Below are positions 9,738 through 11,591 of a stretch of DNA of 11,591 nucleotides, one piece after another (position 1 is the stretch's first letter; the number at the start of each line of letters is the position of its first letter). A model generated the notes under the pieces. It ran no database searches, was not told the DNA's origin, and saw only the letters and a program-made list of their open reading frames with translations. The stretch comes from an uncultured Methanosarcinales archaeon. Lineage in GTDB: Archaea > Nanobdellota > Nanobdellia > Woesearchaeales > CAZKBD01. Made by a program: the position numbers and the translations under genes. The stretch lies in NCBI GenBank assembly GCA_964550945.1, contig CAZKBD010000012.1, forward strand, positions 1 through 11,591. The letters are read 5' to 3'.

Positions 9738-9818
9738 ATGCGAAAAAAAAGGCTGATAACCAGTCTGATAATCATTTTGTTGCCTTCTCTATTGTTAATC
9801 ACGCCTTTGGCTTCTGCA
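9738..9818 (+). other. N-terminal signal peptide
   Basis: MRKKRLITSLIIILLPSLLLITPLASA|SFF has a basic n-region, a ~17-aa hydrophobic core and an A-S-A cleavage motif. Confidence 0.7.
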
Positions 9819-11591
9819 TCTTTTTTTAGCTGGATAACAGGAAAAGCTGTTGAGGATATGGCCATAAATGAAAAAGTAACATGCGCCTTTCTAAATTCAG
9901 ACGCAACTCAAAAATGCTATACAGATGATGGCAAATTTTCATGTGATGGAATAGGCAGCTGTGCAGCAGGCGTTTCTGGATCCCAAGACCAAAAGCTTAA
10001 TTGGAAAAGCTCATGTTCTGGAGAAGCAACAACAATTATTGACGGGAATGATGAAAGCGCGTCATTCAAATGTGAACAGCCACAGATAGCATCAGTTCCT
10101 GCTCCTTCGCCACAGCCTGCTGTAGAGGAAGTCAAAGAAAACATAAAGTGCATATTCCTTAATTCTGGTTCTACTCAAAAATGTTACACTACTGACGGGA
10201 AATTCAGCTGCGTAGGAACAGAAAATTGTGAGCTAGGAATTTACGGCGGAAAAGGAAATGCCTTATCCTGGAAAAGCAGTTGCAGTGGTGAATTTTCTAC
10301 TGTGCTTGATGGGGCAGGTGAAGAATTAGCATTTAAATGTGAGCAAGCTCAACCAACAGCTGCACCAGCTCAAACACCTGTGCCAGAAATTATTAATGAG
10401 CAAGTAAAATGTATTTTTGCCAATTCTAAAGCAACGCAGCAATGCTTTTCTAAATCTGAGCCTCTTAATGGGATGGTCCTGAAAACTTTTTCCTGCTCTG
10501 GAGTTGATAGTTGCGTTGCTGATGTATCCGGCTGGGCAGGAGCCAAGCTTAGTTGGGTGAGCAGCTGTGGAGGCTATAGCTCAACGATTATTGACAAGAA
10601 TAATGAAGAGATTAAGTTTAATTGTGAGACAACTCAATACACTGTGCCAACACCAGCTACTCAGCCTTCTCAGCCAGTTCAACCTATACCAGCGCTTCCT
10701 TCCACAGAACAAACTAAAGAAGCGATCAAATGCATATTTACTGGTTCTGATTCCGGGCAGTTTTGTTATACTGAAGATAAAAGATTTGGCTGCAAGGGCA
10801 TCGGCACCTGCGCAGTAGAATTATATGGGAAACCTGGGGAAATCCTCAGCTGGAGAAGTTCCTGCGAAGGCTCTGTTTCTACTGTAGTTGATGGCCTTAC
10901 AGACTATATTGCTTTTAAATGTGTCCAAGCTCCTTCACTCCAACCAACAACCACGCAACCTGTGCCAGTACTTCCTACTATAAAGGAAAGAGTCAAATGT
11001 CTTTTTGTCAATGCCCAGGCTCCACAGCAATGCCTCAATGAGTACCCTGGCTCCGGCTGCAAGGGCATTGGAAGCTGTATTGATGAAAATGTAGTGGGAG
11101 AGCAAGGAAAAAAGATGGTCTGGAAAAGCTCTTGTGGAGGAGGATATGCTTATACAGTCATGGATGGTGAAGATGAATATGTGGAATTCATCTGTCAGCA
11201 ATCAGCTGCACCCCAGCCAGCCCAAGAGCAAGTTAGTTGCATCTTTGCTTATACTGATTCACCCCAGAAATGCTATAGTGATGATGGGAAATCTAGCTGC
11301 TCCTCGACAGGAGAAGTTTACATCAAGAATACAGAAAAAGGAGAAGCGCGTTATCAAATGTGCAGAACAGATGTTTCTGGTTTACAAGGGCAAAAATTAA
11401 CCTGGAAAAGTTCTTGCGGCGGTTATGTTTATACTGTGATTGATGGCAGTGCCGAAGAAGCAGAGTTTCGATGCCTTCCCTCCAAAGAGGTTAGCCAAGA
11501 GCAGATTAGCGGCAGGGGTTTTAGGCGAGCGTATTGGCAATGTTATGACGGCACAGGAGCGGAAACTTCGCCTACTTACTGCAAATCTTCT
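9738..11591 (+). CDS. secreted Cys-rich tandem-repeat protein, 3'-partial (618 codons in window), unrecognised domain family
   Basis: I translated this frame codon by codon and found no stop from 9543 to nt 11591. The ORF is missing from the supplied track, presumably because no stop lies in the window. ATG 9738 gives a classic signal peptide and sits 24 nt after a TATA box. Six repeats with six invariant Cys each follow. An in-frame upstream ATG at 9567 exists but is disfavoured (see rejected list). Confidence 0.85.
   Translation, partial: MRKKRLITSLIIILLPSLLLITPLASASFFSWITGKAVEDMAINEKVTCAFLNSDATQKCYTDDGKFSCDGIGSCAAGVSGSQDQKLNWKSSCSGEATTIIDGNDESASFKCEQPQIASVPAPSPQPAVEEVKENIKCIFLNSGSTQKCYTTDGKFSCVGTENCELGIYGGKGNALSWKSSCSGEFSTVLDGAGEELAFKCEQAQPTAAPAQTPVPEIINEQVKCIFANSKATQQCFSKSEPLNGMVLKTFSCSGVDSCVADVSGWAGAKLSWVSSCGGYSSTIIDKNNEEIKFNCETTQYTVPTPATQPSQPVQPIPALPSTEQTKEAIKCIFTGSDSGQFCYTEDKRFGCKGIGTCAVELYGKPGEILSWRSSCEGSVSTVVDGLTDYIAFKCVQAPSLQPTTTQPVPVLPTIKERVKCLFVNAQAPQQCLNEYPGSGCKGIGSCIDENVVGEQGKKMVWKSSCGGGYAYTVMDGEDEYVEFICQQSAAPQPAQEQVSCIFAYTDSPQKCYSDDGKSSCSSTGEVYIKNTEKGEARYQMCRTDVSGLQGQKLTWKSSCGGYVYTVIDGSAEEAEFRCLPSKEVSQEQISGRGFRRAYWQCYDGTGAETSPTYCKSS
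9870..11474 (+). repeat. six tandem, diverged coding repeats (68-83 aa six-Cys modules plus P/Q/T/A linkers)
   Basis: Modules lie at 9870-10073, 10137-10340, 10398-10625, 10719-10922, 10986-11195 and 11226-11474. C1-to-C1 periods are 89, 87, 107, 89 and 80 aa. Recurrent strings are KC[IL]F, Q[KQ]C, SC.G..[ST]C, W[KRV]SSC and F.C. Nucleotide identity is only patchy (e.g. the recurring TGGAAAAG), so the copies are old. Confidence 0.85.

Follow-up and report, generated by a model that had tools for sequence, protein, structure and literature searches.

The nearest analogues in concept of the protein described here are the 6-Cys (s48/45) proteins of Plasmodium, which include Pfs230, Pfs48/45, and P12. 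They contain 1 to 14 tandem beta-sandwich domains with up to six disulfide-forming cysteines each (PMC9309271). The s48/45 fold is a mixed parallel and antiparallel sandwich related to SRS and ephrin, and its disulfide connectivity is C1-C2, C3-C6, and C4-C5 (PMC9309271). An MdbA-like oxidoreductase family with an adjacent VKOR is enriched in bacteria of the candidate phyla radiation (PMC6744442). We analyzed an 11,591-nt stretch (positions 1 to 11,591, forward strand) of contig CAZKBD010000012.1 from assembly GCA_964550945.1 of an uncultured Methanosarcinales archaeon, which GTDB places in Nanobdellota, Woesearchaeales, CAZKBD01. The whole stretch is called the window below. It contains a partial coding sequence at 9738 to 11591 on the plus strand, with the N-terminal 618 codons of a gene whose stop lies beyond the window end. 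We conclude that it is a genuine gene, predicted from its sequence to encode an exported Cys-rich multidomain protein. The protein belongs to a family that is widespread in DPANN archaea and undescribed in the literature that was searched. The only related material retrieved there was the MdbA-like family and a review of the Plasmodium 6-Cys proteins.

Like the Plasmodium proteins, the window protein combines a signal peptide, as predicted, with tandem six-Cys domains modeled as beta-sandwiches, probably at the surface of an obligate symbiont or parasite. Membership in s48_45 was rejected. No profile match was found even at E<=10, and no 6-Cys or SRS structure was among the top 50 Foldseek matches in the PDB. 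The Plasmodium domains show A/B-type pairing and are apicomplexan and ephrin-derived, whereas the window family is DPANN archaeal and has no A/B pairing. The likeness is an analogy only.

The closest full-length orthologues (P0001 to P0004) extend beyond the modules. There they encode a Cys-rich domain (CT-A), a CxxC thioredoxin domain, a second Cys-rich domain (CT-B), and a terminal helix. The nearest functional relatives of this head are DsbA/MdbA, TlpA/ResA, and DsbD-gamma, with which the orthologues share an exported thioredoxin fold with a CxxC motif and a cis-Pro loop. Unlike in these oxidoreductases, the domain in the orthologues is flanked on either side by an uncatalogued Cys-rich domain and follows a proposed stalk of 5 to 6 modules. 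The window family also differs in having no membrane anchor and no adjacent partner, and in that the domain is optional. A DsbA/MdbA-type system was rejected, as the closest orthologues gave no DSBA or Thioredoxin_4 match and the domain has only about 90 residues. Protein disulfide isomerases (PDIs) contain several thioredoxin-like domains in an a-b-b'-a' arrangement. The PDI a-domains match the orthologue thioredoxin domain in sequence, and NCBI names P0003 "protein disulfide isomerase family." Membership in the PDI family was rejected because P0001 to P0004 and P0007 contain only one thioredoxin-fold domain each. The remainder of these proteins is unrelated to PDI.

The frame that holds the gene has no stop from 9543 to 11591, as an earlier note on this DNA had claimed. 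Its translation gave 683 codons without a stop, and the other five frames contained 23 to 62 stops over the same stretch. At the local base composition, so long an open frame would arise by chance with a probability of about 1e-19. The same note had pointed out that the gene is missing from the track of open reading frames (ORFs). This is correct, and it has no biological meaning, because the list omits ORFs that run off the source. Seven short shadow ORFs of at least 50 amino acids are listed over the stretch. The product contains 6.1% Cys, compared with 0 to 1.1% in the nine other window proteins. A word-indexed search retrieved 130 homologues at E<=1e-3, which support the coding sequence together with the open frame. 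The best match was 71% identical over 97% of the query. P0001 to P0004 were 58 to 71% identical and 816 to 977 amino acids long. By comparison with them, the missing part is estimated at about 250 to 370 codons, and the window holds the first two-thirds of the gene.

The same locus was retrieved from groundwater assemblies by exact-protein look-ups with L15e, PRPP synthetase, and a 249-amino-acid ORF. These sibling assemblies were JGI 3300009031, JGI 3300009296, and ENA runs of PRJNA292723. At least five independent assemblies agree exactly in sequence over the locus as far as the point where they break. All of the siblings stop inside module 5, near window positions 11147 to 11165. Strain variation or paralogous modules may be what interrupts short-read assembly at this point. 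The last 42 bases of the window had no exact match in the genome or metagenome collections. A metagenome scan for the conserved C-terminal region yielded no contig from the same groundwater samples. None of the public contigs examined extends past 11591, and the C terminus of the window gene was not recovered. A 28.8-kb NCBI contig with an identical PolB exists.

The breaks inside the gene and the missing 3' end are what an ORF open by chance, a pseudogene, or a chimeric assembly of repeats could leave behind. Against such an origin, the open frame is far beyond chance, and the independent assemblies agree up to the break. The full-length orthologues keep the order of the modules. Tandem Repeats Finder detected no tandem repeat at the DNA level among the module copies, which indicates that they are old and not a recent expansion. 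We regard the non-gene explanation as effectively refuted.

The product from ATG 9738 begins with MRKKRLITSLIIILLPSLLLITPLASA (9738 to 9818, plus strand), followed by SFF. By inspection and hydropathy, it has the layout of a Sec class 1 signal peptide. It consists of a positive n-region (MRKKR), a 19-residue hydrophobic core (LITSLIIILLPSLLLITPL), and an ASA motif after which cleavage is predicted. It is the sole strongly hydrophobic segment in the 618 residues. A similar N terminus was present in 105 of the 116 homologues that begin with Met. The signal peptide of the earlier note is upheld to the extent that the N terminus is signal-peptide-like and that the orthologues share its layout. Public gene callers place the start at ATG 9568 and not at 9738. 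With that start, 57 residues would precede the hydrophobic segment. In the orthologues, an initial M-K/R leads at once into a hydrophobic stretch. We consider 9738 the better start because of these N termini and because a TTTATAAA box ends 24 nt before it. The sibling contigs are identical over the intergenic region, so strain comparison is uninformative on the start codon.

An aromatic motif, SFFSWITGKAVEDMA, lies at the predicted mature N terminus (9819 to 9863, plus strand). It is conserved in orthologues as FDW.TG or I.SW...F..ITG. It resembles the ..SWF..LFG helix at the C terminus of the family. Similar aromatic amphipathic motifs stand at both mature ends, as SFFSWITG at 9819 to 9842 of the window and at the C termini of P0002 to P0007. 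One such motif is SFEDIVSWVSNFFGGITG, which follows the signal peptide, and another is the C-terminal SSGFIQKIISWFKKLFG. The C-terminal motif was found in 83 of 108 proteins and the N-terminal one in 25 of 103. These end motifs may be retention or self-association elements.

The remainder of the window protein is made of modules. The earlier note had described a string of six-Cys modules, and there are exactly six, each with exactly six Cys. The modules have about 72 residues and are 38 to 56% identical to one another. All are on the plus strand. Module 1 (amino acids 43 to 114) is encoded at 9864 to 10079. Module 2 (amino acids 132 to 203; 10131 to 10346) is 58 to 81% identical to module 2 of P0001 to P0004. 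Module 3 (amino acids 219 to 298; 10392 to 10631) contains an 8-residue loop insertion and has a positional orthologue only in P0001, with 80% identity. Module 4 (amino acids 326 to 397; 10713 to 10928) is 74 to 86% identical to its positional counterpart in the orthologues. Module 5 (amino acids 415 to 488; 10980 to 11201), in which the sibling assemblies break, is 84 to 89% identical to its counterpart. Module 6 (amino acids 495 to 581; 11220 to 11480) contains a 15-residue loop insertion and is 66 to 69% identical to its counterpart. The linkers contain 6 to 27 residues and are rich in Pro, Thr, Gln, and Ala, again as described before. Modules 1, 2, 4, 5, and 6 were compared with those of P0001 to P0004. 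Identity was 57 to 89% at the same position and 28 to 61% at other positions. Each module position thus appears to be individually constrained. The last 31 residues (EQISGRGFRRAYWQCYDG...CKSS) were considered as a seventh module. This was rejected, as they are the start of CT-A, a different Cys-rich domain.

The module is a domain family of its own. We counted 657 instances in 233 proteins, with 1 to 8 copies each. Exactly six Cys were present in 328 of 333 near-full-length instances. All six Cys were kept in 542 of 565 instances, and the remainder look like loop misalignments. In an alignment of 95 diverse instances, five Cys columns were the only invariant ones. The sixth Cys, E3, F9, G29, W47, S49, and F68 were at least 90% conserved. 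The long consensus proposed earlier is idealized. The six Cys would be enough for up to three disulfides per module. All six columns are at least 97% conserved, so there is no co-loss signal from which the disulfide pairing could be read.

The claim that the module matches no named domain family also stands, as no curated Pfam-A or NCBIfam match and no sequence relative in the PDB was found. The whole protein had no match in Pfam-A 2025 at E<=0.01 and only two noise matches at E<=10. When the 95 instances were scanned singly against Pfam, no family collected more than 6 matches, and none was significant. The best NCBIfam score was to Osc7112_2153 (19.8 bits against a cutoff of 50) and was rejected as noise. 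Sequence searches of the PDB for the module gave a best E of 0.17 with phmmer and the protein, and of 1.5 with a profile of the 95 sequences. Matches to galactose-binding proteins in the PDB (E>=0.17) were likewise rejected as noise. PF22812, the "plant cysteine-rich domain," was rejected as the module family. It reached its threshold only on P0121. Its matches to P0121 and P0019 cover Pro-rich linker and the start of the module. Even at E<=10 it fails to match the window protein or five further members.

An AlphaFold2 model of module 1, with the 95-sequence alignment (A1) as input, has seven beta strands and no helix. Its predicted local distance difference test score (pLDDT) is 94.8. Foldseek found nothing at E<=1e-3 in the PDB, where the best match was a CBM20 domain (8.6e-3), or in BFVD, where the best E was 2.5e-3. 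The nearest folds had query-normalized template modeling scores of 0.53 to 0.70. They are CBM20, the X-module of type II cohesin-dockerin, the SusC NTE, and the carboxypeptidase-regulatory-like domain of teneurin. Other near folds are fiber or structural proteins of phages and archaeal viruses, including His1 VP27. The Foldseek neighbors had E values of 2.5e-3 to 0.5 and identities of 7 to 17%. Small sandwiches of this sort are typically found in extracellular stalks and binding modules. Cna-B/SdrD-B repeats, carboxypeptidase-regulatory-like or prealbumin-like domains, the X-module, and CBM20 resemble the module as modeled in being small (about 70 to 90 residues), all-beta, seven-stranded, and used in tandem with flexible linkers in extracellular proteins. 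They differ from it in that there is no significant sequence or structure match, and only the window family has the six-Cys signature and the WKSSCGG motif. On the model, the fold of the module is predicted not to be new and to be a generic seven-strand beta-sandwich. The module is a new sequence family with what is modeled as a commonplace small beta-sandwich fold.

The window ends inside CT-A. Its start (EQISGRGFRRAYWQCYDGTGAETSPTYCKSS; 11499 to 11591, plus strand) aligns with the start of CT-A in the orthologues. CT-A has about 65 residues with six Cys, and in P0003 (amino acids 588 to 657) it was modeled with a pLDDT of about 95. CT-B contains eight Cys in the pattern CKDSCP..GKCYPFGYRK.GKFCSD...C.NNFEC..N.CV.GKC. 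The terminal helix of the orthologues is a conserved amphipathic SSGLIQKIISWFKKLFG. The two domains were counted with motif-filtered, non-iterated profiles over 235 module proteins. CT-A was present in 103 of these, CT-B in 108, and both in 94. The order modules, CT-A, CT-B was found in 92 of the 94, and CT-B ended within 9 residues of the C terminus in 98 of 108. The orthologues have no PGF-CTERM or C-terminal transmembrane anchor, and they are hydrophobic only at the N terminus. From the orthologues, the missing 250 to 370 or so residues of the window protein are predicted to contain the rest of CT-A, one thioredoxin domain with a CxxC and a cis-Pro loop, CT-B, and the terminal helix. The first reading of this gene is therefore partly right. 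It recognized a secreted, modular protein with an uncatalogued domain and was incomplete on the C-terminal head.

The thioredoxin domain was identified in several ways. PF00085 was above its gathering threshold in P0002, P0003, and P0007, with 30.1 to 41.3 bits in P0003 and P0007 against a cutoff of 23.5. In phmmer alignments, the CxxC and the vPT cis-Pro loop coincided with those of thioredoxins and PDI a-domains in the PDB. When residues 588 to 867 of P0003 were modeled, they contained a beta-alpha-beta-alpha-beta-beta-alpha domain with a pLDDT of 90 to 96. Foldseek returned 191 PDB matches for this domain at E<=1e-3. Thioredoxins, DsbD-gamma, TrxP, and PDI a-domains were among the 50 matches listed, with DsbD-gamma and thioredoxins at the top. 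The thioredoxin inserts of the family carry the motifs of the thioredoxin superfamily, with a CxxC in all 40 and a cis-Pro-type motif in 28 of 40. The CxxC of the closest orthologues is CPQC, CRYC, or CQHC.

Thioredoxin-fold domains occur at more than one place in the family. The thioredoxin is mostly between CT-A and CT-B, and in P0091 it is N-terminal to the module. P0035 and P0075 carry a DsbA-type domain between modules, and P0068 has one on the N-terminal side of its modules. P0033 contains a Redoxin/AhpC-like region between modules that is below threshold (25.9 bits against 26.6). These differing types and positions indicate repeated independent fusions of thiol-disulfide catalysts to the family.

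CT-A showed a consistent weak likeness to the copper-binding domain of APP. This domain is known mainly from animal APP-family proteins. The C-terminal region of P0003 scored 16.8 bits against Pfam APP_Cu_bd, with a cutoff of 26.4. Five of 36 members matched this Pfam family, the best of them at an E of 0.005. A CT-A profile searched against the PDB at E<=10 gave ten matches, all of them to APP, APL-1, or APLP2 (best E 0.015). The hhalign probability for CT-A against a hand-entered APP sequence was 9.8%. Both CT-A and the APP E1 copper-binding domain are six-Cys alpha/beta mini-domains that share C-x4-W-x3-A-x3-C ... CG[VI][ND]xF. CT-A differs in having an extra N-terminal hairpin, and the copper-ligand residues are not evident in it. 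The similarity is a lead only, below every threshold.

The Cys of the modules could themselves be functional, as a redox relay or buffer, or as a scaffold for Cu, Fe, or Zn that acts with the thioredoxin and the copper-binding-domain-like CT-A. The high Cys content, the conservation of all six positions, and the recurrence of thiol-disulfide domains in the family are in keeping with this, as is the fact that the weak CT-A matches are to the APP copper-binding domain only. Against it, the model is compact and all-beta with evenly spread Cys, which is typical of structural disulfides. Motifs of the CxxC or CxxCH type are missing from the modules, conserved ligands such as His or Met were not noted, and the APP similarity does not reach significance. 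We consider functional module Cys very unlikely.

An exhaustive profile search of 1.84 billion cluster representatives retrieved 793 proteins at E<=1e-3 and 649 at E<=1e-10. The source names include Nanoarchaeota, Woesearchaeota, Pacearchaeota, Diapherotrites, Aenigmatarchaeota, and a few Patescibacteria. The members from Patescibacteria include a Liptonbacteria protein with PKD and CARDB domains and another protein with TSP3 repeats. Other partner domains in the family are dockerin, cohesin, and PG-binding. The CT-A/CT-B region was present at 233 loci among species-representative genomes, and some genomes contained two copies. The best 79 of these 233 loci were all archaeal. Most had DPANN labels, and the rest were from an unclassified archaeon or from uncultured Methanosarcinales bins. 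More than 443 loci were found in metagenomes. No family member was found on viral contigs.

The neighbors of the gene in the window are archaeal housekeeping genes, encoding a family B DNA polymerase, PRPP synthetase, prefoldin, FtsY, a DEAD-domain protein, and L15e. The ORFs at about 76 related loci were clustered, and no conserved neighbor emerged. The commonest flanking family occurred in 6 loci. The neighborhoods of P0001, P0003, and P0004 all differ.

Some of these observations favor a surface adhesin or host-contact protein. In that case the modules or the CT-A/CT-B head would bind a ligand on a host cell, mineral, or glycan, and the thioredoxin would only help to fold the protein's own Cys, of which there are about 50. 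The thioredoxin is dispensable in most family members. The family is largely limited to episymbiotic DPANN archaea and some Patescibacteria, and the module co-occurs with adhesin-type or cell-surface domains (CARDB, PKD, TSP3, dockerin, cohesin, and PG-binding). The top structural neighbors include the carbohydrate-binding CBM20 and the cohesin-dockerin X-module. The module positions are individually conserved beyond the need of a pure spacer. On the other side, no ligand-binding site or known adhesin domain was identified in the protein, the structural matches are nonsignificant (E>=2.5e-3), and there is no conserved partner gene. The repeated independent gain of thioredoxin, DsbA, and Redoxin-like domains is not expected of a simple adhesin. 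The CT-A/thioredoxin/CT-B arrangement in the closest orthologues shifts the likely function from a plain adhesin toward extracellular thiol-disulfide chemistry. We judge the adhesin unlikely, though it is a serious alternative.

The reading that we prefer, with about even confidence, is a disulfide-stapled stalk that bears an extracellular thiol-disulfide oxidoreductase head. Up to three disulfides would lock each module once it is outside the cell. The modules and their semi-extended Pro/Thr-rich linkers would form a protease-resistant stalk, which would keep the CT-A/thioredoxin/CT-B head away from the membrane. The CxxC of the head would exchange disulfides with extracytoplasmic proteins. 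These may be the Cys-rich surface proteins of the cell itself, the window protein included, or those of a host. With neither a transmembrane anchor nor a PGF-CTERM present, the terminal amphipathic helix is the candidate for retaining the protein at the surface.

Several observations weigh against a stalk with an oxidoreductase head. The C-terminal architecture of the window gene is known only from orthologues and not from its own sequence, and the module disulfides are predicted, not observed. The thioredoxin was present in 37 of the 94 proteins with both CT-A and CT-B and missing from 57, so it is accessory and not the core of the family. The inner dipeptide of its CxxC is variable, with CPHC the commonest form and CPYC the next. 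No DsbB, VKOR, or CcdA-type partner adjoins the gene in the roughly 76 loci. Extracellular thiols need not be oxidized in groundwater, from which the samples came.

A broader version would make the family a DPANN-wide, self-contained device for extracellular disulfide exchange. Its thioredoxin or DsbA head on a six-Cys stalk would remodel the surface disulfides of a host, or relay redox along the stalk, for episymbiotic contact. CT-A would be a genuine prokaryotic homologue of the APP copper-binding domain. We think this version improbable. The module is a true domain, and the family and its architecture are new. They fall within known kinds of systems, namely stalk repeats of beta-sandwich type and exported proteins with a thioredoxin fold, and are not a new kind of system.

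The intergenic region upstream of the gene (9475 to 9737) contains promoter-like copies of TTTATAAA followed after 1 to 3 nt by AAATCCCT. One copy is on the plus strand at 9706 to 9724 and, as read from its sequence, may act as the promoter of the gene. The distance between this TATA box and ATG 9738 suggests that the mRNA is leaderless or nearly so. An inverted copy on the minus strand, at 9541 to 9557, faces the divergent L15e gene. Between the divergent promoter-like elements are four direct repeats of ACTWWTTGGGCAR at 9616 to 9686, with start-to-start distances of 20, 20, and 18 bp. All four occurrences of TTGGGCA in the window are inside this array. The array is identical in the sibling assemblies and is a candidate regulator-binding site. 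It was not present upstream of the orthologues, which share AAGTTTTATTAAG and a GGTGA leader instead. The "unusual upstream control region" of the earlier note is real in that the repeats exist. It is organism-specific and does not characterize the family. The intergenic region contained no tRNA and no Rfam match, and the only Rfam match in the window at E<=1 falls in the PolB gene. At the P0003 locus (L004), the place of the repeat array is taken by a tRNA-Ala(GGC) gene (9875 to 9951), some 50 nt upstream of the family gene.

Other features of the window were also noted. The DEAD-box gene (7375 to 8037, minus strand) encodes 220 amino acids with a DEAD/ResIII domain and no Helicase_C. Its stop overlaps the convergent FtsY stop by 4 nt. 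It may be a split or truncated helicase. The stretch from 839 to 1827 (plus strand) contains a winged-helix and nucleotidyltransferase fusion (839 to 1378) that overlaps by 4 nt a 150-amino-acid ORF (1375 to 1827) with no Pfam match. This layout resembles toxin-antitoxin pairs of the MNT/HEPN type. The sequence from 6001 to 6500, in the N-terminal region of the FtsY gene, has a strong purine skew (GC 0.475, AT 0.551). The skew is consistent with a charged low-complexity FtsY A-domain. The 249-amino-acid ORF (8150 to 8899, plus strand), which lies between the genes for the DEAD-domain protein and L15e, matches nothing in Pfam or NCBIfam and is identical in all sibling assemblies.

DPANN archaea are tiny, mostly uncultured cells attached to other microbes, and their surface molecules are largely unknown. 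The family described here contains three Cys-rich domains (the module, CT-A, and CT-B) that are outside the curated libraries, and it has gained thioredoxin-fold domains more than once. With 72 residues, the module is small, and it is confidently modeled and easy to express. A new Pfam entry made from it would annotate several hundred unnamed proteins. The family is an experimentally tractable candidate for how archaea with no obvious Dsb system handle extracellular disulfides. It is also a candidate for what DPANN cells present to their hosts.

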